Shown: piece by piece, positions 1 to 12,964 of the stretch
Numbering within the stretch: position 1 is the first letter of the stretch
How the letters are laid out: each line of letters starts with the position of its first letter
UHGV virus genome: UHGV-0179208
Direction: 5' to 3' (one strand)
Source of the DNA: a virus
DNA length: 12,964 nucleotides
Translations under genes and position numbers: made by a program
Notes under the pieces: generated by a model
The model's input: the letters and a program-made list of their open reading frames with translations, nothing else
What the model was told of the DNA's origin: nothing
The model's database searches: none

Positions 1-85
1 TATTAATATGGTCTTTAATAAAATTTTCTTGAGCTTGTTTATTTTTAAATTGATACCATTTATTAACTTCAAATCTAATAGCCAT
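1..85 (-). CDS. 5'-partial ORF (first 28 codons, [28 protein letters not shown]...), gene continues past the window start
   Basis: Manual translation: ATG at 85..83 shares a base with the TAA of the upstream ORF (TAATG); frame stays open to position 2. Not in the ORF track. No function assignable. Confidence 0.35.
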
Positions 86-300
86 TAATAAATTTCCTTC
101 AAGTAAGTTGTACCGTCTTCAGTGATTTCACGGAATACACCGTAAATTGGTTGTTTATCACCAACCTTTTCATACACATAAACCGAAGTCAAGTGAGTAA
201 ACTTAATGGTGTGTTCCTTTTGAACTACTACCAAATCTGGATCGAATAATACATCTTCAAATTCGTCATTAGTGCAATTCTGAACAATTTTACGTTTCAT
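85..300 (-). CDS. hypothetical small protein, 71 aa
   Basis: ORF track. ATG at 300..298 preceded by GAGGA (reverse complement of 308..312). Lies in the position where T4 has cef/goF but I do not recognise the sequence. Confidence 0.55.
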
Positions 301-313
301 TACAATTTCCTCA

Positions 314-538
314 TTAATTAAACAGTGGAGCGATGCGTTTCAGAAGAGTAGCAGCACCTTTGGCGAATTTTACATCATGAAAAACAGTTTCTTCTTCCGT
401 TACAACACGAGCTTTAATGTTTTCACAATCCCAATTTTTACGAACAATCTTCAAAAGCTGCAGTAAATCTTTACATTCAGCAATATCGATAACACATCCA
501 CGAGAATCTTCCATTATCGCACGATAACCGTAAGCCAT
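314..538 (-). CDS. hypothetical small protein, 74 aa
   Basis: ORF track. ATG at 538..536; upstream Shine-Dalgarno is weak. Same strand and packing as neighbours. Confidence 0.5.
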   Translation of the reverse strand: MAYGYRAIMEDSRGCVIDIAECKDLLQLLKIVRKNWDCENIKARVVTEEETVFHDVKFAKGAATLLKRIAPLFN

Positions 539-607
539 ACCATAATCGTTGAAAGATTGCTCGATGATAATTAAGTTTTACATTTTATTCTCCAAGTTGT
601 TTTCTGT

Positions 608-650
608 ATCAGTAGTTGATATTGATATAGTACCATAATCAACTACTGAT
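608..650. repeat. perfect 13-bp inverted repeat (atcagtagttgat / atcaactactgat) with 17-nt spacer, intergenic
   Basis: Read directly: 608..620 is the exact reverse complement of 638..650. AT-rich stem and no U-tract, so not a classic intrinsic terminator. Confidence 0.6.
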
Positions 651-679
651 GTATATAGTTTTATGAAAAAATTTAAACT

Positions 680-1168
680 TTATGCATAGAGAGCATTGCT
701 ATAGTGTTTAATCCAACTTTCAGGAATGACTTTGTATGTTCCTAAAAATACCACATTGTACAACTTAACACCATCTTCTACCCATTGATCGGTAATATAT
801 CCACACATAGCGCGAGTATAAGCAGCCTTTCCATCATCTTTGATAAATTTAAATTCGCAAGGAGCAATGAACTTAATAGCTTGACCGAGTTTCCACTTAA
901 AGTCTACACCTACATGTGAAGTATCAATCGTTTCAATTCCTTTAGCAGGAACAGCTTTCAAAAACGCAGATTCAAGAAATTTCGCACGAACATAGCCAAA
1001 CTGAGGTTTAGACTTTCCATCTTTAGGAATGATACGCACTTTTACTTCAGAATCTTCATCTTTAACGCCATGTTTAAGCTGAATGCTTACAATTTCGACC
1101 AATTTTCCTGCTGCTTTAGAGCGGGATTTATCAGATACACGAGCTAATTCACCAATATTAATAATCAT
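680..1168 (-). CDS. MotB-position protein, 162 aa (possible MotB-like DNA-binding protein)
   Basis: ORF track. Size (162 aa) and position (three ORFs downstream of dexA in transcription order) match T4 motB as I recall it. Name is tentative; I do not recognise the sequence itself. Confidence 0.45.
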   Translation of the reverse strand: MIINIGELARVSDKSRSKAAGKLVEIVSIQLKHGVKDEDSEVKVRIIPKDGKSKPQFGYVRAKFLESAFLKAVPAKGIETIDTSHVGVDFKWKLGQAIKFIAPCEFKFIKDDGKAAYTRAMCGYITDQWVEDGVKLYNVVFLGTYKVIPESWIKHYSNALYA

Positions 1169-1206
1169 AGTTATTTCTCACTTGTTAAAAAGATTTTATA
1201 CTCCGC

Positions 1207-1241
1207 GGGACCATTATACTCTGGTCCCAAGAGTTTGTAAA
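1207..1241 (-). promoter_or_regulatory. sigma70-like early promoter candidate (minus strand TTTACA-17-TATAAT) overlapping a 7-bp-stem hairpin
   Basis: Minus-strand TATAAT = plus 1213..1218; TTTACA = plus 1236..1241; 17-nt spacer. Inverted repeat gggacca (1207..1213) / tggtccc (1222..1228) puts the -10 hexamer in the loop. Sits 40-70 nt upstream of the ATG at 1168. Confidence 0.4.
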
Positions 1242-1679
1242 CTAGCTTACACGAACATTAATCACTGCGCTGCGAGGAACTACGGAGTACTCTCCAGCAT
1301 GAACTACATTAAGAAGTTCAACGCCATCTTCAATCCACTGGTCAGTTACCCAACCGCCAATCGGATTCGCGAATGGACGACGAATATAAACTGCCTTACA
1401 CAACAAATCAGTCGGGTCTTCAGGTTTTTCAATTTCTGTCAATAGACTAAAATCTTTTTCATAAATAATAAGCGGTGATACCATTCCATAATAGTTTCTA
1501 ATTTCAATATACATCATACCGATAAGAATTCCGCTATTAACACTAATAACAGTAAAAGGATATCCGCCAGTTAAACCAAGAAGTTCACAAAACTTATTAT
1601 GAGCTGTATTAGACAGTACAGAAAAATTCTTAATTTCATCAAATTTTTTCAATTGATAAACAGCATTATTTTTAATCAT
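1242..1679 (-). CDS. hypothetical protein, 145 aa; paralog of the C-terminal half of the 162-aa ORF downstream (motB.1 position)
   Basis: ORF track. Shares TDQW(V/I)EDGV(K/E)L(Y/L)NVV...G(T/E)Y.V(I/V)P with ORF 680..1168. ATG at 1679..1677. Confidence 0.65.
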   Translation of the reverse strand: MIKNNAVYQLKKFDEIKNFSVLSNTAHNKFCELLGLTGGYPFTVISVNSGILIGMMYIEIRNYYGMVSPLIIYEKDFSLLTEIEKPEDPTDLLCKAVYIRRPFANPIGGWVTDQWIEDGVELLNVVHAGEYSVVPRSAVINVRVS

Positions 1680-1689
1680 AATTTTCTCT

Positions 1690-2190
1690 TTAATCTAAGG
1701 TAATAAAGCCTTTTAATTCGGCATGGGATTTGCGGAACATTACTTGGTGCCCACCAATGATAACTTCATCTTCAGGAACTTCGTATACAGCAAGATAAAA
1801 TCCTTTAGAAGCTAATTCTTCACGCTCTTCTCGTGTGAACCATCTCATCATATCATATTCACTAGCGAAAGCAAAATGATAAAGACCTATAAACCATCCG
1901 GGAATATGATATTCTACTCCAACATAATCTTTCTTGAACTTAGTATTAATTGCTATATTAGCATTTTTAACTAATAATTTGTCTTCGCGCGGAAGAGGAA
2001 TTCTTTTGTTATCATTACTATGATGTGTAAAATTAGGTCTATCATAACCTACGTGTAATAACCACTCTTCGCTCCATGAATCTATTATACTCCTGTATGG
2101 CGTTATTTGAACACAAAGATTTCGACGTATTGTTATAGCATCTTCACAATTAAGAATACTAAACGATGATTCAACACGGTAAATTTTCAT
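1690..2190 (-). CDS. hypothetical protein, about 166 aa (motB.2 position); ORF track extends it to 2229 via a TTG
   Basis: ORF track 1690..2229. The first in-frame ATG is at 2190..2188 and is preceded by GAGGA; the track start at 2229 is TTG and lies upstream of the predicted promoter start site. Confidence 0.65.
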   Translation of the reverse strand: MKIYRVESSFSILNCEDAITIRRNLCVQITPYRSIIDSWSEEWLLHVGYDRPNFTHHSNDNKRIPLPREDKLLVKNANIAINTKFKKDYVGVEYHIPGWFIGLYHFAFASEYDMMRWFTREEREELASKGFYLAVYEVPEDEVIIGGHQVMFRKSHAELKGFITLD

Positions 2191-2217
2191 TTTATTATCC
2201 TCAGTAGCTATGGTGTT

Positions 2218-2246
2218 ATAATACCACAACTAACAGAGGAAGTAAA
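2218..2246 (-). promoter_or_regulatory. T4 early-type promoter (minus strand TTTACT-17-TGgTATTAT)
   Basis: Minus -10 TATTAT = plus 2218..2223 with TGG immediately upstream; -35 TTTACT = plus 2241..2246; preceded by A-rich AAAAAGTTG. Same module recurs at 5844, 7179 and 9281. Confidence 0.5.
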
Positions 2247-2253
2247 CAACTTT

Positions 2254-2937
2254 TTATCGTTTTGTTGGAAGAGATAGAGGATCGCACTCTTCCTCTGACG
2301 GAGCATCTTCAAGACCCATAGCATACCGCAAAGCATACTTCATCATCAGGATGTCTTTCGCACAGTCATGAATAGAATCATGTACAACGAATCCATCTAA
2401 AGTTCCCTTTGGAAGAGGACACGTGGTCATATCACGAACAAGCAGAAGTGCTTCAATTCTGGTACGAATATCACGTTGATTCCAGAATTTACATGGTTCT
2501 AACTTAAATGTGTCAAGTTCATTCTCGGAAACGCCGTTAAGACGCTGAATATCGCGAATGAGATCGACTAAAATTGGAAAATCAAACGACATTCCACGGC
2601 ACCAGCCTTGAGATTTCCAAGGATCGATGTTATGTGCATTGATGTAATCATTAAATTTTGCAATACCATCGATAGTGCTTACATCTTCATCTGATGGTGC
2701 AATATTTTTTCGAGCTTCAGGAGACTGATTTTTCCACCATTCGATAGTGCTTTTAGTAAAAAGACGATGTCCTTTTTGGCTTTTTAAATCAAACTTGATT
2801 TTAATGCCGCGTGAAACTAATTCATCAAATGTTTCAACTACTTCTGGATTAGGGTCAAAGGCAATAACAGCCAAATCAATAACAGCTGCCTTTTCACCGC
2901 TTCCCATTGTTTCAAAATCTATAATAAAATCAAACAT
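2254..2937 (-). CDS. dexA: DexA, 3'->5' DNA exonuclease A (DEDD family), 227 aa
   Basis: ORF track. N-terminal DFETMG exonuclease motif (Exo I D-x-E); 227 aa equals T4 DexA; located downstream of dda as in T4. Confidence 0.8.
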   Translation of the reverse strand: MFDFIIDFETMGSGEKAAVIDLAVIAFDPNPEVVETFDELVSRGIKIKFDLKSQKGHRLFTKSTIEWWKNQSPEARKNIAPSDEDVSTIDGIAKFNDYINAHNIDPWKSQGWCRGMSFDFPILVDLIRDIQRLNGVSENELDTFKLEPCKFWNQRDIRTRIEALLLVRDMTTCPLPKGTLDGFVVHDSIHDCAKDILMMKYALRYAMGLEDAPSEEECDPLSLPTKR

Positions 2938-3179
2938 TAAATTTTCCTCGCTAAATCGCGAATTTGACCTACAGTATAATCTTGGATATAAACTTTATTA
3001 ATGGGCTCATCAATAAATTTTGCCATAGATTCAATATCTTTTTGTATCTCTTCAAGACTGTATACTATCTTTAAAGCTTTTTCGCGAATAGTAACATTAT
3101 CAGGTCCTGAATTTTCTTGAATGACAGCTTTAACATTTGCCATAAGAGATTTAAACTGATGCAAACTTAATTCAATCAT
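2937..3179 (-). CDS. hypothetical small protein (dexA.1 position), about 80 aa from the ATG at 3179 (ORF track gives 91 aa from 3212)
   Basis: ORF track 2937..3212. ATG at 3179..3177 forms an ATGATTGA overlap with the stop of the upstream ORF. C-terminus resembles that of ORF 3172..3432. Confidence 0.55.
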   Translation of the reverse strand: MIELSLHQFKSLMANVKAVIQENSGPDNVTIREKALKIVYSLEEIQKDIESMAKFIDEPINKVYIQDYTVGQIRDLARKI

Positions 3180-3432
3180 TAATAATCGCCTTATAAAGAT
3201 GGCTAATTTCACCTAAAATGTAATCACTGATTGTAACAGTTTTTACTTCACCACAAAAGAATTCTAACGCAATCAAATCTCGTTCAATTTCTTCCAATTG
3301 AAGCATTAACTTGCCTGATTCAATTTTTACATTTCTGCGATTTTTACTATAAGCTATTTCATATATTTCGCTCACTTTATCTTGAAGTAGATAAAACTGG
3401 TCTTTAGTTATTTCCACGAATAGCTTCCTCAA
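3172..3432 (-). CDS. hypothetical small protein, 86 aa (dexA.2 position); paralog of the adjacent ORF
   Basis: ORF track. Shares LEEI..D and a C-terminal (I/T)(Q/S)DY.(V/L)G(Q/E)I motif with ORF 2937..3179. Confidence 0.55.
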   Translation of the reverse strand: MRKLFVEITKDQFYLLQDKVSEIYEIAYSKNRRNVKIESGKLMLQLEEIERDLIALEFFCGEVKTVTISDYILGEISHLYKAIIND

Positions 3433-3438
3433 ATTTAA

Positions 3439-4758
3439 TCATACGTAAAACACATCATAACGACCACGAGTGACACCAACATAAAGAAGCTGCTGAGCTA
3501 ATTCAGCATCTGCATAATGAATACAAGGCGTATAGATGAAAGCACGGTCTACAGACATACCCTGAGCTTTATGGAATGTTGACGCAGGAAGTGCTTTCAC
3601 TTTACTAAACTGTGATTTAGCATCCCAAAAATCACTCCACGGAGCTTTTCCACCTTTATTCCAATTTTTGTAAGTTTCTGCCGTTTTACCTAAAAATAAG
3701 TTAAACTTATACAGCTCTTCATCAGATGAAATTATTTTAATCTTTTCACGATAATATTCATCATCGCCGTAAGTTTCTACTGTTAAATCCCAATGACGAA
3801 TTAGATATTCTCCAGAAACACCACGAGCTTTAACAAAGGTTGATGTATACTCTGCTTCTATAATACGAACTAATTGTCCGTTATTAAAAATAATTTCTGA
3901 CACAGGCTTTCCATCAATTTTATATGTTTTAATTAATGGTTCCTGCATTACAATAATTTCACCGACAATAAAATCTTTATCAGTTTCAAAAATCTTTTTA
4001 CGAATGATGCTATTTAACTTATCAACAGATTTATTCGTAAATGCCATTACGCGATTTTCAAACAAATCATCTAGTGATTTGACGATTGAAAAATAATTTA
4101 CCATAAAATCGCGTAAAGCGGTATCACCGGTAAATCCACGTACTCCATGACCGTCAACAACTTTATCATAAATCCACTTACCGTTACGAACGTCAGTAGC
4201 TACATCAATAATAGGAGCATTACTGCGTTTAACTTCAGTGAGTTCACACTGATAAAAGTCTTTGTGTGTAAAGAATGGACTGATATAAGCAGTGTTTTCT
4301 CCTGGGTCAACAGGTCTAATTTGCTTATTATCGCCTATTCCAATTATAGTACACCACGGCGGGATAGTTGAAAGCAGAATTTTAAATAGCTTTCTATCAT
4401 ACATTGATACTTCATCGCAGATTAATACCCTGCATTTAGCTAAATCCGGTACTTCTTTTTGTTCAAAAAGAACGTTTTCTTCATATGTTACTGGGTTAAT
4501 TTTGAGAATACTGTGAATAGTACTTGCTTCTTTCCCAGATAGTTTTGAAAGAATCTTTTTAGCTGCATGAGTAGGAGCTGCTAAAATAATACCAGTTTCA
4601 CCTGTAGATATTAGGGCTTCAATAATGAACTTAGTAAGAGTAGTCTTACCAGTACCAGCAGGTCCATTAATAGTTACATGATGTTTCTTTTCTTTAATAG
4701 CCCTCATAACGATGTTAAAGGCATTTTTCTGGCCTTCTGTCAAATCATCAAATGTCAT
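3439..4758 (-). CDS. dda: Dda, SF1B 5'->3' DNA helicase, 439 aa
   Basis: ORF track. Walker A GPAGTGKT, Walker B DEVSM; length and overall sequence agree with T4 Dda as I recall it. Confidence 0.93.
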   Translation of the reverse strand: MTFDDLTEGQKNAFNIVMRAIKEKKHHVTINGPAGTGKTTLTKFIIEALISTGETGIILAAPTHAAKKILSKLSGKEASTIHSILKINPVTYEENVLFEQKEVPDLAKCRVLICDEVSMYDRKLFKILLSTIPPWCTIIGIGDNKQIRPVDPGENTAYISPFFTHKDFYQCELTEVKRSNAPIIDVATDVRNGKWIYDKVVDGHGVRGFTGDTALRDFMVNYFSIVKSLDDLFENRVMAFTNKSVDKLNSIIRKKIFETDKDFIVGEIIVMQEPLIKTYKIDGKPVSEIIFNNGQLVRIIEAEYTSTFVKARGVSGEYLIRHWDLTVETYGDDEYYREKIKIISSDEELYKFNLFLGKTAETYKNWNKGGKAPWSDFWDAKSQFSKVKALPASTFHKAQGMSVDRAFIYTPCIHYADAELAQQLLYVGVTRGRYDVFYV

Positions 4759-5066
4759 CGGAAAGTCCCTGCAATTGGAATACTAACAATACGCCCAGTA
4801 TCTAGAATTCGTTGATATAATCTTTGTGTATCTACATCAGGCTTAACATGTTTAACTTCTATTTTATTAAACCAAAACTTGCGTGGAGTCTCAACTAGTC
4901 TTGGAATTCCCATACCTAAAGCTAGTTTATATTGGTCTTTGAGAGTAGTAAAAACTCTATCAGCAATCTCTCTTTCAAAAAACACAGCAGGACGATGTTC
5001 ATCAAGTGGAACTGGCGCCGTAAATCCGTCTTTGTCTCGGTAAACTATCGCATATACATAAACCAT
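4755..5066 (-). CDS. hypothetical protein, 103 aa (dda.1 position)
   Basis: ORF track. Its stop overlaps the dda start (ATGA); synteny with T4 dda.1. Confidence 0.6.
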   Translation of the reverse strand: MVYVYAIVYRDKDGFTAPVPLDEHRPAVFFEREIADRVFTTLKDQYKLALGMGIPRLVETPRKFWFNKIEVKHVKPDVDTQRLYQRILDTGRIVSIPIAGTFR

Positions 5067-5067
5067 A

Positions 5068-5814
5068 TTATCCTCGGATAAGTTTAAAAATTGAACAATT
5101 TAGCGGGTATCCTCTTTTCAGTTTAAGTTTATCAATAAAAGACAAGTTTTGATACCGCTCTACACCTTGAATAATTTTATCACACATATCATATTGCATT
5201 TCTGCTTCTGACAACTTTTTCACAATTTTCCAATCCGAGCCTTTAAGAAGAACGTTCAGTTTAACAACTTCAGCGCCTTCTGCTATGCGAGAACCATCAA
5301 TACGAGCTTTAAGTGCTATAATCCTTAGCTTAATGTCAGAGGTCTGTTTTGATTTAGAAAGCTGAGAAATGTGTTCAATTCGATTTTCACGTTTTTTCTG
5401 TATAGCTTTAATTTGATTATAAGTCTTTTTGATTTTAGCCCATTTCTTTTCATCTAAATTTAGTTTATGAACTTTTTTCGCAGATGAACGACCAATTCGC
5501 AAAGCAAATAAATCACGCTTTTCAATCAACTCTTCTAAAGTATAATCAGAACGAAATGTATTATACTTTTTCTTTACTGCAATAACATTCCCTTTAATGT
5601 ATCCAATGTTATTATCAAAACGTTCTAATGATAATTTCTCTCCTTCAATACGATTATCAAAAGGTTCTCCCGAGTAAGCACAAACTTTTTGATCTAAAAT
5701 GTTCTTAATGTAATTGAAGTCTAAGTTAAAATCTTTAGAACGTCTTTTTGCAGATGCCTGAGTATGCTCTAAACGACGTTTAATTTTACGAATTTGGTTA
5801 TTAGACAGTTTCAT
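5068..5814 (-). CDS. srd-position protein, 248 aa (possible Srd-like regulator); contains a degenerate HNH-like segment
   Basis: ORF track. Position between dda.1 and modA matches T4 srd. Segment CAYSGEPF...LSLERFDNNIGYIKGNV resembles an HNH fold without the catalytic His. Very K/R-rich. Confidence 0.5.
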   Translation of the reverse strand: MKLSNNQIRKIKRRLEHTQASAKRRSKDFNLDFNYIKNILDQKVCAYSGEPFDNRIEGEKLSLERFDNNIGYIKGNVIAVKKKYNTFRSDYTLEELIEKRDLFALRIGRSSAKKVHKLNLDEKKWAKIKKTYNQIKAIQKKRENRIEHISQLSKSKQTSDIKLRIIALKARIDGSRIAEGAEVVKLNVLLKGSDWKIVKKLSEAEMQYDMCDKIIQGVERYQNLSFIDKLKLKRGYPLNCSIFKLIRG

Positions 5815-5843
5815 ATTTTCTCACGGACGGTTAACTTACTTAT

Positions 5844-5872
5844 ACTATATCATTTTTACTTCAGCTTGTAAA
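5844..5872 (-). promoter_or_regulatory. T4 early-type promoter (minus strand TTTACA-17-TGaTATAGT) upstream of the srd-position ORF
   Basis: Minus -10 TATAGT = plus 5844..5849 with TGA upstream; -35 TTTACA = plus 5867..5872; preceded by AAAGTTG (plus gtaaacaacttt, 5868..5879). Confidence 0.45.
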
Positions 5873-5884
5873 CAACTTTATGTA

Positions 5885-5912
5885 AAATGCTTTAAAACTT
5901 TCGTGGTATAAT
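5885..5912 (+). promoter_or_regulatory. plus-strand middle-promoter-like element (MotA box aaaTGCTTTA, 12-nt spacer, TGgTATAAT), antisense to modA
   Basis: Plus strand: TGCTTTA at 5888..5894 preceded by aaa; TATAAT at 5907..5912 preceded by tgg. Matches the T4 middle promoter arrangement. No plus-strand gene follows it. Confidence 0.35.
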
Positions 5913-5929
5913 GAATCTAAGTCCTTCCA

Positions 5930-6532
5930 TTATAGATTAAATCCTTCAAAATCAAGAGTATAGATAGTGTATGTTGAATACTTTTTATACTCATATCTAT
6001 CTGCAATTCTAAATACACTTCCAGCTGGTATCATTACTTCTTGTTCATCTGAAACTAATTCCATATTACGATAACGATGGCTATCCGGAAACTTAAAGTT
6101 TGGATTGTATTCTTTACAGCGTAGAGCTTTTATAGCATACTCCTGGAAATTGAATACCATAGGAGCTTTGAATTCAAAAATAACTTGTGTGTTATACTCT
6201 AAACCGGAAGCAAAATGTAGAGCTATATTTTTATCATATGAAGCTGATACGACTTAATCAAAAGTAATAATAACAATTCCTTCATTTAATATAAGTTTAG
6301 TCTCAACTGGAACACCTCTCCAAAGAGGTTTATCGTTTGGAACCAAACGAGATTTGATTATTTCATTTAACCAAGTATGGTCATCTGGTTTGTTGGTAAT
6401 ACAACGAATTAAAAGTTCAATTTCAGATAAATTAAACCCTTCAGAAAGCAATTCTTCACGAATAGAAGCACGCACCGATGCATCCATTGATTTTATTTTA
6501 AAATCTTTTAGTTGCATTACTGAGTATTTCAT
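5930..6532 (-). pseudogene. modA: modA-like ADP-ribosyltransferase, 200-codon frame interrupted by one in-frame TAA (codon 93)
   Basis: ORF-track ORFs 6254..6532 and 5930..6160 are in the same frame. Manual translation of 6161..6253 is open (VVSASYDKNIALHFASGLEYNTQVIFEFKAP). The only stop is TAA at 6254..6256. Motifs: LWRGV before the stop, VSAS just after, DEQEVMIP in the C-terminal part. Confidence 0.6.
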
Positions 6533-7152
6533 TCAACTACCTCAATATCATAAACTTTAAATGTTCCAAATGAATCGTGTAATTTTTCTTTTGAAATAGA
6601 AGTTATTTTATACTTTCCAATTGGAATCATCCATTCTTGTTCACGCACAATCATCATTAAGTTATCAGTACGCTCTGAATCTAATCCATCAGTATCTTCA
6701 TACGTGTACTTAAACTCAGTATTAGGAGAAGAAAGTATAATATCGCTGATATGGTCAGAATAATTAAAAGCTTTATTAGTTTTTAAACGAAGTATTATTT
6801 TAGTAAAATATTCAGCATAAGAAAAAGAACACGCTGTATGCAAACTAGTAGTAAATGAATCTACCCTGTTCGTTGAAAACACTTCTCCAACTTGTAAATC
6901 TTTAATAAGTTCTTTTGTCGATTTTGATATACCACGATATAGCTGATAAGGTGATTTAGTTAAATGCTTTTTAACGATTTTATTCAACTGCCGATGAAGA
7001 GCTTCATTCTTTTTGGCTTCCATACATTGCCAAAGAACAGACTGCTCAAAGTCAGTAAATTTTTCACAGACCTTTTTATACATATCATATTGAAAATCAA
7101 CGCTTTCAGCTTTTATAGATAACTGTTCAACATCTGCAGGATTAATAATCAT
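6529..7152 (-). CDS. modB: ModB-like mono-ADP-ribosyltransferase, 207 aa (R-S-E class)
   Basis: ORF track. Catalytic motifs LYRG (Arg), FTTSL (S-T-S), REQEWMIP (E-x-E); 207 aa; immediately upstream of the modA-like frame, as modB is in T4. Confidence 0.7.
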   Translation of the reverse strand: MIINPADVEQLSIKAESVDFQYDMYKKVCEKFTDFEQSVLWQCMEAKKNEALHRQLNKIVKKHLTKSPYQLYRGISKSTKELIKDLQVGEVFSTNRVDSFTTSLHTACSFSYAEYFTKIILRLKTNKAFNYSDHISDIILSSPNTEFKYTYEDTDGLDSERTDNLMMIVREQEWMIPIGKYKITSISKEKLHDSFGTFKVYDIEVVE

Positions 7153-7178
7153 GATAGCCTCCGTATACTTCAGAAGCT

Positions 7179-7207
7179 ATCATATCATCGTTAGAAAGGA
7201 AAGTAAA
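7179..7207 (-). promoter_or_regulatory. T4 early-type promoter (minus strand TTTACT-17-TGaTATGAT) upstream of modB
   Basis: Minus -10 TATGAT = plus 7179..7184 with TGA upstream; -35 TTTACT = plus 7202..7207; AAAAAGTTG upstream; GGAGG Shine-Dalgarno 5 nt before the modB ATG. Confidence 0.5.
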
Positions 7208-7219
7208 CAACTTTTTGAA

Positions 7220-7402
7220 TTATTTTGCCCAGGGAGCCCAAGGCGGAGGGTCAAGATGGTATGAAGCTAGTTCTTCTAGAAGAGCATCTGGGGCTTCAAT
7301 TCCATAATTCTGTAATACTATACGGTACTCTTTCTTATAATCACTAGAATCATTCTGGATATTCGTAGAATGATTATCTTCTAACATCTCAAATAAATCC
7401 AT
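7220..7402 (-). CDS. hypothetical small protein, 60 aa
   Basis: ORF track; ATG at 7402..7400; consistent strand and packing. Confidence 0.5.
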   Translation of the reverse strand: MDLFEMLEDNHSTNIQNDSSDYKKEYRIVLQNYGIEAPDALLEELASYHLDPPPWAPWAK

Positions 7403-7410
7403 ACTAATTC

Positions 7411-7881
7411 CTAGCGATAAAAACCAAATTGACGATTAGCTTCAATAATCTTTCTTTCTTCTTCGGACATTCTCCAGCGTAGTCCAACATCAAAATGAGC
7501 CCAGACCATCTTAACAAATGCATTTATATCTTTAATATCTTCAATAATGAATGTTTTACTTTTAGAAGGTTGACTCGCTAATTTAACTTTATCGTCTTCA
7601 AACATGTCAAAAAGACCATATTCATGAGCTCTTTTATAGCCTTTAATAGTTAAAGCTTCGGAAGAAGAAAACGGTGAATCAGTATTCTGCAAAATATCTT
7701 CAGTATGCTTTATAATTAGAATAACATTTTCTGGATATTTTCTTTCTTTTATATCTTTAATTAAAAAATCCGGATTTTCTGCTAAAGGAATAATTAATGA
7801 GCATTTTTTACCAAGTGTATTTACTGATTTACCTTCTTTGGACATAAATTCTATTGAATAATGTTTTGCTACTTCAATCAT
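7411..7881 (-). CDS. hypothetical protein, 156 aa
   Basis: ORF track; ATG at 7881..7879 overlapped by the stop of the upstream 54-aa ORF. Confidence 0.65.
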
Positions 7882-8038
7882 GTGATTTCCTTTTGCCTAC
7901 TAATGGACCGTCAGGAATTTTATTTTCCTGGATATACTTCTCATTTTCTTCCATCATTTTACTGCCAATTTTAAGAAGCAAATCCAAGGCTTCATTTGCT
8001 TTAGCCTTTGCCTCTTCTAACGTCATATCTTTGGTCAT
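7874..8038 (-). CDS. hypothetical small protein, 54 aa ([54 protein letters not shown]); absent from the ORF track
   Basis: Manual translation. ATG at 8038..8036 overlaps the TGA of ORF 8035..8238 (ATGA); its own TGA at 7876..7874 overlaps codons 2-3 of ORF 7411..7881. Confidence 0.5.
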
Positions 8039-8238
8039 GATTTATCACCATAGATGTCTCTCATCAATTTAAGCGCTGAGCGTTCTAATTTCTTTTCTTT
8101 CTCAGCACTAATCATTGATTTCATCCATTCTTCTGACTCGTTCTGCATTTCTTTATTTGCTTGTTCAACCCAACCATCATCAATATACATTGAGTTTGGT
8201 CTACTGAACCATTCAAGCATTTTCTTCAGAACTTTCAT
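8035..8238 (-). CDS. hypothetical small protein, 67 aa
   Basis: ORF track; ATG at 8238..8236; acidic and K-rich. Confidence 0.55.
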
Positions 8239-8698
8239 TTACTTTACCCAAAACAACAGTAGGAGCATCATCAAATTCATGAATTTTTAGCAAATTTGGA
8301 TGTAAACTATTCCATACAGAAGAAATAAAGTATGATAACGCATCTTCACTCGCAATTATAAATTTATTTCCTTTATCTATTTTCCAGCTATATACTGAAT
8401 CATACGAATAGAAAGATAAAGGTTTATCATTATATTGTTCTGCGCTAACATTGATGTATTCGGATTTAGTAAATGCTTCAATTGCTCTAAACGGAATATT
8501 TGGTACAGTTTCAATAATTCCGATCTTTTTAAGTTTTATTTCAGCATCTTCTGGAACTGGCATTGAAACAAAATTTTCTACGAGATACATTGGGTCACAA
8601 TAACCCTTATCAATCATTACTGCTACAGTAATTGGAACGTCTTTAGCAAACGACATACTATTACTGCTAATATACATTTCAAACAAAATCGCTTCCAT
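8213..8698 (-). CDS. hypothetical protein, about 161 aa from the ATG at 8698 (ORF track starts at a TTG at 8710)
   Basis: ORF track 8213..8710. First ATG at 8698..8696 is preceded by AGGAAA; the TTG at 8710 overlaps the upstream stop and is less likely. Confidence 0.6.
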
Positions 8699-8706
8699 AA
8701 TTTTCC

Positions 8707-9048
8707 TCAATCACAAGATGTAGATGAACAACTAGAATCACAAGAACTTCCACATGAATCGCCCGTCCATACATGAACAGGAACATTAGTGTCATATGAA
8801 TCAGAACTAGACTGTGTATTCTGCGTATTAGATGATGTAGTAGGTGTTGACCAGCGCCAAGGATTTTTATAATATTCTTGGGCTTCTTCATAAGTCATAG
8901 TAACTGCTTCTACTGTTCCATCTCCCATATAAACATATTCAACTACAGTTAAAGGAAGATAGTCATTTGAAATAGGAACTACACCTTCTCCAGGAGTCGT
9001 AGAGAAAAAATCTTTAAAGAAACTTTTAAACCAATTAAAGATAAACAT
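8707..9048 (-). CDS. hypothetical protein, 113 aa, with Ser/Thr-rich linker and Cys/Ser-rich C-terminal tail ([18 protein letters not shown])
   Basis: ORF track. ATG at 9048..9046 overlaps the TAA of the upstream ORF (TAATG). Hydrophobic N-terminus [11 protein letters not shown]. Confidence 0.6.
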
Positions 9049-9254
9049 TACAAAAAGCCTCTTTTGAATTCGACTTGCTTCTCGCCATAATCATATCGAA
9101 TCTCTGCATTAAATTCGACAGAACCATCTGCGTACATCATAAATGAATGCACAACAACTTCTGTAGACCATGGCTGTAGTTCATATTTCTTCATTACATG
9201 CCGCGAAATGATAATATCTAAATCTTCATTTGGTTTAATCCAACGATTTAACAT
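9048..9254 (-). CDS. hypothetical small protein, 68 aa
   Basis: ORF track. ATG at 9254..9252 preceded by GAGGAG and by the early promoter at 9281..9309. Confidence 0.65.
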   Translation of the reverse strand: MLNRWIKPNEDLDIIISRHVMKKYELQPWSTEVVVHSFMMYADGSVEFNAEIRYDYGEKQVEFKRGFL

Positions 9255-9280
9255 AGTGCTCTCCTCTATAAGATAATTCT

Positions 9281-9309
9281 ATTATACCATACTCATTTTA
9301 GAAAGTAAA
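9281..9309 (-). promoter_or_regulatory. T4 early-type promoter (minus strand TTTACT-17-TGgTATAAT)
   Basis: Minus -10 TATAAT = plus 9281..9286 with TGG upstream; -35 TTTACT = plus 9304..9309; exact 17-nt spacer. Confidence 0.6.
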
Positions 9310-9320
9310 CCGGTAAAATG

Positions 9321-9346
9321 AAAAAAGGACTCCCGGAGGAGTCCTT
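9321..9346 (-). terminator. rho-independent terminator downstream of soc
   Basis: Inverted repeat aaggactcc (9325..9333) / ggagtcctt (9338..9346) with 4-nt loop cgga. On the minus strand the GC-rich stem is followed by TTTTTTCATTTT. Confidence 0.7.
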
Positions 9347-9352
9347 GAATTA

Positions 9353-9589
9353 TTAACCACCTATTTCTGTAGGCGTAAACATTGCAGCATTCTTAGTTTT
9401 CCAAGTTGCTGCATCGGAAACTACATCAGAATAAGCTGCTTTTTCTGACGGAAAGATTTGATAATGAGAATCTGCGATACGATGCTCGTTAGAATAAATT
9501 TCAAACGGAACAGAAACTTCCATACCTTTAACTTCTTTGCCTTCACCCGCTGGATGAGTAAAGGTCTTGATGTTAACGAAACCACCCAT
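9353..9589 (-). CDS. soc: Soc, small outer capsid (decoration) protein, 78 aa
   Basis: ORF track. Conserved Soc segments VNIKTF, GKE.SV.F, HYQ.FPSEKAAYS shared with T4 Soc as recalled, but overall diverged. Own late promoter upstream and terminator downstream. Confidence 0.8.
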   Translation of the reverse strand: MGGFVNIKTFTHPAGEGKEVKGMEVSVPFEIYSNEHRIADSHYQIFPSEKAAYSDVVSDAATWKTKNAAMFTPTEIGG

Positions 9590-9620
9590 AATAAACTCCT
9601 TTATTGTTTAATTACAAGTG

Positions 9621-9628
9621 TATTTATA
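9621..9628 (-). promoter_or_regulatory. T4 late promoter core TATAAATA upstream of soc
   Basis: Plus tatttata at 9621..9628 = minus TATAAATA, 32 nt upstream of the soc ATG (9589). The only exact TATAAATA I found on the minus strand. Overlaps the stop of the HNH gene. Confidence 0.7.
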
Positions 9629-10460
9629 ATCCATTTTCAAATCTCTTTATCATGTTTATATAATTTTCGTCAGGATAACCTAGGCTAACTGCTAGTTTTC
9701 TAAAATTGACATATTTAGGTTTGTTGTTATTAATCCATAATTCTCTAAGCTCTTTTTCATAATTCCATTTAAGTTGATTTCTGCGTGCAGTTTTGCTTAA
9801 AGTTTTTCCTTTAGCTTTTAAAGCTTTTTCAGATGACTGTTTTAATTTTTGAATATTTAAAACTTCTTCTATAGATAAATTATTTTCCTTTGAATATCTT
9901 ATGCAAAAATCTTTTACTGCGGCTATTAGGCAATTTTTGTGAGTACCTAAAATTTCTGGGTTATTTTCTTCAACTAAAATTCCCCAATATCTTCGGTAGC
10001 GAGGCATATCTCTTGAAATCCAGTCATTATACCAAAAATCAAAGTTGGAATACATGAAAGATTTTCTTTTACGAAGAGTATCTTGGTTTATCCATTGCTC
10101 ACGTTTATCAGCCCATAACTTAATAGTAAAGTCTTTTTCTGAGTCAGAAAGCTTCTTAAATTGTGAGCTATTTACTGAGGTCATTCTCTGGAATGCATTC
10201 AGCAATCCAAATCTTCCAGTTGAACATAAGAGATAGTGAACATATATGTGTTGATATATTGGGAGATATACTCTATTCCAAGGATGTATTTTAAAATCAC
10301 TATACTCAGGAAATGCGCATTTAGGAAGTATATGATGGGCTTCTGTTTTAGATTTGATGTGAGTGTTTAACTTATATTTATCTATAATTTTTAAGTACTC
10401 ATCTAAAAGTTCCCATTGCGGGAACTTTTCTTTAAGAGCGGATTTGAAATTAATATCCAT
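9624..10460 (-). CDS. HNH-family freestanding homing endonuclease (about 278 aa from the ATG at 10460; ORF track starts at a TTG at 10475)
   Basis: ORF track 9624..10475. HNH motif EAHHILPKC...N.V.L....H...H. C-terminal about 45 aa are about 50% identical to the C-terminus of ORF 10970..11620. Weak Shine-Dalgarno. Start overlaps the 3' end of gene 56. Confidence 0.75.
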   Translation of the reverse strand: MDINFKSALKEKFPQWELLDEYLKIIDKYKLNTHIKSKTEAHHILPKCAFPEYSDFKIHPWNRVYLPIYQHIYVHYLLCSTGRFGLLNAFQRMTSVNSSQFKKLSDSEKDFTIKLWADKREQWINQDTLRKRKSFMYSNFDFWYNDWISRDMPRYRRYWGILVEENNPEILGTHKNCLIAAVKDFCIRYSKENNLSIEEVLNIQKLKQSSEKALKAKGKTLSKTARRNQLKWNYEKELRELWINNNKPKYVNFRKLAVSLGYPDENYINMIKRFENGL

Positions 10461-10968
10461 TATCTTGACGTTCAAAATTATGTTTGTTCTTCAAATAATA
10501 AAGTTTAAAGATTTCTTCAGCCGTAAGACCAAGACCTTGGAACATGTTCAGAACGAAATGAAGAATATCAATCATTTCGAATTTAATTTCCAACTGGTCT
10601 TGTGGAGACAAATCAGTAATCAGAGTTTCACGACGTTCACCATGTTGAGCTTTCCAAGGCTTCCATACAGCAGATGCATCTTTTTCGCCATTGCTCATAC
10701 CACCAAGAGATGTCAGATGTTCACGGAATTCATCATCAATGTAATCTTTCTGATTACGCAGCCAATCAACAACTTCACCAGCAGTAGTCAAATCATCAGG
10801 ATGACGATTATATTCAGGTTTATCTTTAGCTAAACGAACCTGTAGAGATTTCTGCATATCAAGCATAACCTGCAGCGGGTCTTTTTCGTCACCGAGAATA
10901 TCCCAATATTCATTTTGAGCTTTATCTGCACCAGCGATCAGTTGACTACATTCGTTGAAATGTGGCAT
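10450..10968 (-). CDS. 56: dCTP pyrophosphatase (dCTPase-dUTPase, MazG-like), 172 aa
   Basis: ORF track. Size (T4 gp56 is 171 aa as recalled) and position between soc and gene 61. ATG at 10968..10966 preceded by AGGAAA. Sequence not verified by alignment. Confidence 0.7.
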   Translation of the reverse strand: MPHFNECSQLIAGADKAQNEYWDILGDEKDPLQVMLDMQKSLQVRLAKDKPEYNRHPDDLTTAGEVVDWLRNQKDYIDDEFREHLTSLGGMSNGEKDASAVWKPWKAQHGERRETLITDLSPQDQLEIKFEMIDILHFVLNMFQGLGLTAEEIFKLYYLKNKHNFERQDNGY

Positions 10969-10969
10969 G

Positions 10970-11620
10970 TTATTTTTCCTTTCTTATGAAGTTTTCTATC
11001 ATATGTCTATAGCAGATATTAGGATAACCTGCCTTGACAGCTATTTTATTAAATTTTGTGCGTTTAGGTCTATTATTATAAACCCATAATTCATAAAGCG
11101 CATCATAACTATTCCATATTTCTCCTCGCCTAGGATTTGGTAAACCATATCGAGGTGAATTTTTACCGCTAAATCTTCCTTTTCGGGCTTTACTCATATT
11201 AGCCTTGGCTTCATCGGATATAATTTTACCTTTATGAGCTAGACGCATTTTGGCTTTAGTTTCTTCTGGGGTCTTTTTGCCTTTAATCCATGACGGCTTG
11301 CCATATCTAGGATTATTTTCACCCGAGAAAAGAACGGAGTTTTGGATTTTAAGGGTTTCTATTAATCTACTTGTTAATTTAACACCTTTATTATATCGCA
11401 TTAAATTTACAGCATAATGCAATCCTCTCACATCTGGATATATTTTAGTTAATAATCTATGAGCTATAAAATGCTCACGCGCAGTTAACTCAACAAGATT
11501 GTTTTTGCCATCTGTTCCTCCCATACATCTAGGAATTATATGATGGCGTTCTTTATATCCGCCAAGATGCCGGCATTTAGCTTTTGTAATTAAAGCCGAG
11601 TAAATTTTTTGGTAATTCAC
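10970..11620 (-). CDS. HNH-family freestanding homing endonuclease, 216 aa, GTG start
   Basis: ORF track. HNH motif ERHHIIPRCMGGTDGKNNLVELTAREHFIAH; repeated NNPRYGK / KNSPRYGLP NUMOD-like modules; C-terminus paralogous to ORF 9624..10460. Start is GTG at 11620..11618 (in-frame stop at 11636..11638). Confidence 0.8.
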   Translation of the reverse strand: MNYQKIYSALITKAKCRHLGGYKERHHIIPRCMGGTDGKNNLVELTAREHFIAHRLLTKIYPDVRGLHYAVNLMRYNKGVKLTSRLIETLKIQNSVLFSGENNPRYGKPSWIKGKKTPEETKAKMRLAHKGKIISDEAKANMSKARKGRFSGKNSPRYGLPNPRRGEIWNSYDALYELWVYNNRPKRTKFNKIAVKAGYPNICYRHMIENFIRKEK

Positions 11621-11653
11621 ATATATCCTTTCAATTCATGGATTAGTAGATCA

Positions 11654-11680
11654 ATTATACAATAAATATATAAAGCAATA
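11654..11680 (-). promoter_or_regulatory. T4 middle (MotA-dependent) promoter candidate: MotA box tatTGCTTTA, 11-nt spacer, TATAAT
   Basis: Minus TGCTTTA = plus 11671..11677; minus TATAAT = plus 11654..11659. Lies 35-60 nt upstream of the GTG of the HNH gene and would also drive gene 56. Confidence 0.5.
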
Positions 11681-11690
11681 AGGAGGACAT

Positions 11691-11891
11691 ATGGTACAAA
11701 AATTAATGGCACTTGTTAATGCCATCAAAGGTAATAAAAAACGTATAGCTTTTACTATTTCTGCTATGATAGGAATTTTACTTTGGAATTTTGTTTTATC
11801 GCCAGTTGCTATTGCTCATGGCGTTAGTATTCCAGTAATTACTCTTGATACATTCGTAGATTTAGCATTTGCTTTAGTTGGGTTAATTTAA
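11691..11891 (+). CDS. plus-strand small hydrophobic protein, 66 aa (two predicted membrane-spanning segments)
   Basis: ORF track. Canonical AAGGAGG at 11680..11686, 4 nt before the ATG at 11691. Hydrophobic stretches IAFTISAMIGILLWNFVLSPVAIA and VITLDTFVDLAFALVGLI. Its stop overlaps the gene 61 stop on the other strand (TTTAAA, 11887..11892). Confidence 0.5.
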   Translation: MVQKLMALVNAIKGNKKRIAFTISAMIGILLWNFVLSPVAIAHGVSIPVITLDTFVDLAFALVGLI

Positions 11892-12916
11892 ATCTTAGCA
11901 TATTTAGATAGCCGCATTTTAGCCATCAACCCTTGGGCAATATTATTTTTCATATATTCCATAATTTGTTCAGGGGTTGCACCTTCCTTTCTAATCATAT
12001 CATTAACATCTTTTGATTTCCAGGGAGATTTATCCCAAAACATAACCCTTTCTCCTGCATCAACTAATTTAGTCATTCGCTTGATAGTGTCAGGATGACG
12101 AGGTTCATTATCTAAAACCCATACACGTCTATCTTTAAATGGAACAATTTCTAGGTCTAATTGACCGCCTGTAATAGCTATACCATTTTCAATAAAAAGC
12201 GAATCTATAGGTCCTTCTAGAACATATACATCACCGTCTTTAACCCGTTCAACACCATAGATTTTTGTTGCCTCAGGATAAGCTTTGATGGTGATATATT
12301 TTTGGGGAGCATCTTTCTTTAATGCACGTCCTTGAAAAGACTCAGCTTTTCCATTAGCATTATAAATTGGAATAACAAGACGAGGCTCAGGTATTTCCTT
12401 TTTATATGTTCCCGGTGCTATGCTATTAACTAATTTAGGCCATTCGGTTGTAAACCAAAGATATTTCCATTTATCCTTTGGAATACAACGAGCTTTTACA
12501 TATTTTATAATTGGATGGTCTTCCGCCAGTTTATCTAATCTAACACATGACGGAAGAGATTTAATTATTTTCTTCTCAGGCTGCTTAGGAAGTTCTTTAG
12601 GTTTTTCTACTGGACGACTTTTACCTTTTTCTTTTCTTATTTCAAAGATATACTCACGATATAAATCAGGTTCAAACTCCTTTAAATATATTCCGATTGG
12701 TGCATGATAGTTACAGTTATAACAATGAATGTTTCCTTCATTATTATCACCATAATACCATCCACGGGCTTTATTTTGGTCGGTTTTTGAATCTCCACAC
12801 ACTGGGCATCTAAACCGCAATTTAAAAGTTGAACTATTATTTACTTGTGTGAATTTAGGTAAATGAGCTAATGCACGATACGCAAACTCATTATCAATCC
12901 AAGCTATTGATGACAT
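11888..12916 (-). CDS. 61: DNA primase gp61, 342 aa (zinc ribbon plus TOPRIM)
   Basis: ORF track. Zinc ribbon CPVCGDSK...CYNCNYH; TOPRIM-like VLEGPIDSLF and VLDNEPR; 342 aa equals T4 gp61. Confidence 0.88.
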   Translation of the reverse strand: MSSIAWIDNEFAYRALAHLPKFTQVNNSSTFKLRFRCPVCGDSKTDQNKARGWYYGDNNEGNIHCYNCNYHAPIGIYLKEFEPDLYREYIFEIRKEKGKSRPVEKPKELPKQPEKKIIKSLPSCVRLDKLAEDHPIIKYVKARCIPKDKWKYLWFTTEWPKLVNSIAPGTYKKEIPEPRLVIPIYNANGKAESFQGRALKKDAPQKYITIKAYPEATKIYGVERVKDGDVYVLEGPIDSLFIENGIAITGGQLDLEIVPFKDRRVWVLDNEPRHPDTIKRMTKLVDAGERVMFWDKSPWKSKDVNDMIRKEGATPEQIMEYMKNNIAQGLMAKMRLSKYAKI

Positions 12917-12964
12917 ATTAACTCTACTTTATCTTTAGATACCTCATACTTCTTATTAGGAATC
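12904..12964 (-). CDS. 3'-partial ORF (last 19 codons, ...IPNKKYEVSKDKVELICHQ); its stop overlaps the gene 61 start
   Basis: Manual translation: only one minus-strand frame is open across 12904..12964; TAG at 12906..12904 overlaps the gene 61 ATG region. Too short to assign. Confidence 0.3.
   Translation of the reverse strand, partial: IPNKKYEVSKDKVELICHQ

Follow-up and report, generated by a model that had tools for sequence, protein, structure and literature searches.

An internal stop codon in the modA gene of a T4-like phage contig is very probably a base-calling artefact

ModA of T4-type phages is an early, NAD-dependent enzyme. In bacteriophage T4 its target is Arg265, which it ADP-ribosylates in both alpha subunits of RNA polymerase. 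T4 ModA is strongly toxic to E. coli, and deletion of modA has no clear phenotype (PMC2988021). The substitution E165A abolishes ModA activity (PMC11404850), and laboratory modA-null phages of the T4 type are viable (PMC2988021; PMC11404850). Here we describe a modA ortholog that is interrupted by a stop codon in the contig as deposited, compare it with its closest relatives and weigh the explanations for the interruption.

The window, i.e. the whole stretch of DNA that was analysed (12,964 nt), is the complete gut-metagenome contig ena:ERZ1304577:NODE_4769_length_12964_cov_4.112015. Positions 5930..6532 of its minus strand hold one frame of 200 sense positions followed by a terminal TAA, and translation reveals exactly one internal stop, the TAA of codon 93 at 6254..6256 (minus strand). 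The ORF list accordingly contains two pieces of this frame, a 92-aa ORF (6254..6532) and a 76-aa ORF (5930..6160), both on the minus strand. The initial annotation had joined the two into a single 200-codon frame broken only by this TAA, with the arginine motif before the stop and the S-x-S and E-x-E motifs after it, and all of this is borne out by the ORF list and the translation: LWR72GV lies upstream of the TAA, VS96AS98 and DE163QE165VMIP lie downstream, and the catalytic signature R-S-EXE (R72, S96/S98, E163/E165) is complete in the frame but split by the TAA after R72. The same annotation held that the 92-aa product lacks catalytic residues, and we concur; the product is without the catalytic Glu165 and would be inactive, because E165A abolishes the activity of ModA (PMC11404850). 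The ATG at 6160 is preceded by AAAGCTCCT, and there is no Shine–Dalgarno sequence or ribosome-binding site at this place, just as had been described.

That the gene is modA-like and of the size of T4 ModA is likewise correct. With codon 93 read as Lys, its product is identical to T4 ModA (NP_049635) in 192/200 amino acids (96%, E=3e-149) and matches PHROG 832 'RNA polymerase ADP-ribosylase' (E=3e-32), and the precomputed annotation of both fragments is PF26816 Mod_ADP_RT. Scans of the product against Pfam and NCBIfam profiles returned no match, the family model being apparently absent from the copies scanned. The best phage record has 98.3% nucleotide identity to the modA of the window, and the window is 95–98% identical to approximately 500 Tequatrovirus (T4-like) genomes. 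Its gene order is that of T4, cef-motB-dexA-dda-srd-modA-modB-modA.2...soc-56-61, and the order srd-modA-modB-modA.2 is common to the window, T4 and 12 other Tequatrovirus records. The adjacent paralogue of 207 amino acids, which had been reported as intact, is indeed so; it is the modB ortholog (6529..7152, minus strand), overlaps modA, carries the motifs LYRG, FTTSL and REQEWMIP, and encodes the same protein as scaffold L026 and contig L017, both introduced below. Judged by homology and synteny, the locus is an ordinary T4-type modA ortholog with a predicted function as RNA polymerase alpha ADP-ribosyltransferase, interrupted in this contig.

Elsewhere in the window, the interval from soc to gene 61 (9624-11891) comprises a 278-aa ORF, gene 56, a 216-aa ORF and a 66-aa ORF on the plus strand. 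The 216-aa ORF is a homing endonuclease according to the annotation of its relatives and has a faint NUMOD3 match. T4 has segF-56-dam at this position, whereas the window is without dam there; the arrangement of the window is also found in several relatives (PYPS2T, fPS-2).

The most informative comparison is with WUHA17-1_SAMN06233224-S039 scaffold_249 (ERZ28654506; 168,996 bp; hereafter L026), which shares the ModB protein of the window. Positions 1-12964 of the window align with L026 end to end and without gaps, with 12,945/12,964 identical positions and 19 mismatches, and the contig represents essentially the same phage. The uninterrupted modA coding sequence that is absent from the contig is present in this near-identical scaffold as an intact 200-aa ORF with AAA (Lys93) as well as Q80, Q84 and D87. 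Across modA the two agree in 597/603 nucleotides, and every position outside the patch described below matches, including the rare R43 allele. The initial annotation suggested an alignment with T4 ModA to learn which sense codon occupies the site of the stop, and named reads with a sense codon there as a finding that would speak against an interrupted gene. The alignment gives AAA, Lys93: this is the codon in T4, in the closest record KRT47, in 12/12 aligned references, in L026 and in approximately 500 relatives, and among the homologues it tells against the stop.

The 19 mismatches to L026 fall into two dense patches, of six and nine substitutions respectively, and four single differences. 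The first patch comprises six substitutions within 39 nt (6256..6294, minus strand; gene columns 239-277) at positions 6256, 6263, 6273, 6283, 6293 and 6294; on the coding strand five of them are A>T and one is C>G. Their effects on the codons are Q80L (AA>TT), Q84E (C>G), D87V (A>T), the silent T90T (A>T) and K93* (A>T), and outside this patch the alignment shows modA to be near-identical to T4 and KRT47. It is misleading to speak of a single in-frame ochre codon, as the initial annotation did, when the TAA is one of six A>T or C>G changes in 39 nt. The second patch comprises nine substitutions (12904..12955, minus strand), eight A>T and one C>G on the coding strand; it lies within the last 61 nt of the contig and stops 9 nt short of its end. 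Here the substitutions cause P5A in gp61, alter the leader of gene 61 and convert the stop codon of 61.1 from TAA to TTA, so that the stop is lost. The substitutions look unselected: four of the five altered modA codons (4/5) carry missense or nonsense changes, a stop codon has disappeared and a gene leader is altered. The four singles, given on the plus strand, are C>A at 101 (cef W67L), C>A at 1620 (synonymous), C>A at 2235 (intergenic) and A>T at 10718 (gp56 L84H); they are probably isolated base-call errors, and neither cef W67L nor gp56 L84H should be trusted.

All 19 mismatches to L026 are transversions (on the plus strand 13 T>A, 2 G>C, 3 C>A and 1 A>T), while the 5,335 differences between L026 and 12 other Tequatroviruses in this region consist of 4,109 transitions and 1,226 transversions (77% / 23%); at a natural fraction of 0.23, the chance of drawing 19/19 transversions is P ~7e-13. 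The coding strand of the two patches contains 49 A, 22 T, 14 G and 6 C, and the only bases that have changed are A, 13 times and always to T, and C, twice and always to G, which on the plus strand gives T>A and G>C as the signature of both patches. When the window is set against 12 full-length references, 72 positions are private to it; these are mostly scattered transitions, and the two tight patches stand out from them.

Nor is the stop allele encountered in other sequences. A 71-nt query across the stop was compared with 497 phage records; the best of these matches in 67/71 positions, and none has any of the four changes of the first patch that the query covers. With a query for the second patch, the best match among 503 phage records was 76/85, and none carries any of the changes. 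An exact scan of IMG/VR and the JGI metagenomes did not find a 26-mer bearing the TAA, and the exact 92-aa protein occurs in this one contig only across the whole gene-position index.

We consider it very probable that the stop in modA is a sequencing and assembly artefact and that the underlying phage modA is ordinary and intact, because 19/19 differences from L026 are transversions, the two patches bear one and the same signature, the coverage is only ~4x and no relative shares the changes. Of the three readings offered by the initial annotation, sequencing error is favoured over the nonsense allele and readthrough, on the strength of L026, the transversion spectrum and the twin patch. The contig name is in the style of SPAdes, where 'cov' denotes the mean k-mer coverage (4.1x). 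Under a Poisson distribution with a mean of 4.1, the probability of a k-mer coverage of 1 or less is 0.084, corresponding to ~8% of positions. Errors at contig tips fit a low-coverage artefact, and the second patch, within 61 nt of the end of a contig with a coverage of 4.11, is a case in point; it probably belongs to the same class of artefact as the modA patch. A sibling assembly provides a further contig of the same phage, L017 (ERZ1304862 NODE_31121; 2345 nt; cov 2.95), which corresponds to window 6509-8853 and stops 20 nt into modA, short of codon 93. The only mismatch between L017 and the window is located 10 nt from the end of L017 itself, a sign that errors may gather at contig tips in these assemblies.

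A plausible source of such errors is the sequencing chemistry. In the two-colour chemistry of Illumina, A is read as red plus green, C as red, T as green and G as dark; in NextSeq 500 two-colour data profiled with AfterQC, A/G and C/T errors are very scarce, and bubbles, to which NextSeq flow cells are prone, cause local damage to reads (PMC5374548). If a single channel is miscalled, the result would be transversions only, with a red fault interchanging A and T or C and G and a green fault interchanging A and C or G and T, and a transition would require the failure of both channels. The patches would fit a fault of the red channel, i.e. red lost in a minus-strand read or spurious red in a plus-strand read, and the three C>A singles would be explained by spurious green. 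Where coverage dips, and at a contig tip, a single poor read, possibly one damaged by a bubble in the flow cell or one with a degraded 3' tail, could provide the sole path through the de Bruijn graph and thereby become the consensus; the depth, base quality and strand at 6256-6294 are inferred. As to the instrument, the label 'WUHA17' in the scaffold name suggests Wu et al. 2017 (PRJNA361402), for which use of the NextSeq 500 is stated at the level of the project (PMC9867701); a re-analysis paper names no instrument, and a literature search for the sample accession did not find it. Judging by the scaffold label and the identity of the strain, the reads behind ERZ1304577, and likewise sample SAMN06233224, are probably from PRJNA361402 and hence from a NextSeq 500.

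Two considerations count against an artefact. The first patch is well inside the contig, in its middle, and any single read responsible for it must have been free of errors to either side. Moreover, ModA is dispensable as well as toxic and independent modA nulls exist elsewhere, so that a null allele is not implausible in general. The strongest competitor is a real TAA, generated by a localised multi-base event such as an error-prone tract that hit modA, with a second tract at the 61.1/61 junction. The toxicity of ModA to E. coli and the lack of a clear phenotype upon its deletion (PMC2988021) speak for such an allele, the change does stand in the deposited contig, and modA is disrupted independently in other assemblies. 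On 15 public contigs the C-terminal 76-aa ORF is a gene call of its own, and five inspected loci show clean disruptions: a 5-nt AGTAT duplication in a 164.9-kb human-gut contig (L018 2624-3231; ERZ916169), with seven further similar places; +T in L019 (2628-3231; SRR33913798); +C in L020 (2628-3231; ERR15315860); -AC in L021 (2631-3231; SRR17762126); and TGG>TGA (W71*) in L023 (21-623; ERR10215114). Real loss of a toxic and dispensable modA may recur in T4-like phages. In two scaffolds of ~975 nt (L024 and L025), modA is interrupted only by stretches of N and absent sequence; such breaks come from gaps in the scaffolding rather than from mutation, and they inflate the tally of contigs with a separate 76-aa ORF.

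For the contig at hand, however, a real allele would have to account for 19 transversions and 0 transitions relative to L026, for a twin patch exactly at the contig tip, for a contig coverage of 4.1x and for changes that are shared by no other genome or contig searched. In short, two strand-specific A>T/C>G tracts would be required within 13 kb, one of them exactly at the contig end, and we know of no phage or host process that makes only A>T and C>G changes, on one strand, in tracts of 40–50 nt. We hence judge a genuine nonsense allele to be improbable. Less likely again is a particular form of it, in which both patches are real and reflect a strand-asymmetric A>T/C>G hypermutation acting on 40-50-nt stretches, for example bypass scars of a defence-imposed base modification, one of which disabled modA. 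Were the stop real, a T4-like phage of the gut would have lost a host-takeover enzyme in nature, a modestly interesting result.

A templated origin of the patch, whether by recombination or gene conversion with a divergent modA or by a quasi-palindrome template switch to sequence close by, is very doubtful. T4-like genomes are mosaic, identity across the relatives is patchy, and clustered multi-base changes are a hallmark of templated mutation; yet k-mers of at least 12 nt that include a changed base do not recur in the contig on either strand, the variants occur in none of the 497 and 503 phage records respectively, and the flanks of the patches are identical to L026. Imported natural sequence would moreover consist mainly of transitions and mainly of synonymous changes, and the patches are neither. 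The template switch was rejected in its own right, with no donor in the contig and with short chance matches that are rarer than for the unmutated string.

T4-type phages carry tRNA genes elsewhere in their genomes, and the frame is open before as well as after the stop, with all catalytic motifs intact, as would be expected if programmed readthrough or a suppressor tRNA decoded the TAA and full-length ModA were still made; we give this almost no credence, seeing that the stop is conserved in no relative and AAA is found everywhere else, that genes of the contig end in TAA more often than in any other stop (17/27 gene calls, including the end of modA itself), that the window holds no tRNA gene and that the neighbouring missense changes mark the patch as something other than a designed recoding site. 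A diversity-generating retroelement was considered as well and discarded: neither strand holds a repeat of the patch, no reverse transcriptase is found among the gene calls of the contig, A changes to T only and not to any base, and C>G changes are present too.

A base-calling artefact, the explanation that we favour, has consequences beyond this gene. At 4x coverage, a patch of instrument-specific miscalls can make a gene in a metagenome contig look like a pseudogene. Three simple checks bring this to light: the contig is compared with a near-identical genome, transitions are weighed against transversions, and similar patches are examined for how far they lie from the end of the contig. The same three checks apply to other interrupted-gene findings in low-coverage assemblies.

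How, then, does the locus compare with the known systems? Like T4 ModA, the frame in the window has 200 codons with R72, S96-x-S98 and E163-x-E165 all in place, and it shares with T4 the ATGA overlap of modA and modB in addition to the srd-modA-modB-modA.2 order. It differs from T4 ModA by the TAA at codon 93, Q80L, Q84E and D87V, all four of which lie in the suspect patch, and by H43R, S53T, A76V, V81I and C185Y, which are also present in L026 and are natural. The resemblance to the two-colour error spectrum of the NextSeq 500 (PMC5374548) lies in the restriction to transversions and in the local runs, as seen in the window; that published spectrum is a per-read statistic, whereas the errors proposed here are in a consensus and would need near-single-read coverage, and the likeness depends on the platform that we infer for the run behind ERZ1304577. 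Like the modA-null phages of the T4 type, the protein encoded in the window loses everything after R72, including E165, but the null alleles in other assemblies are single clean events without a halo of transversions or a twin patch at the contig end. L026 is without all 19 transversions of the window, and the two are otherwise identical.
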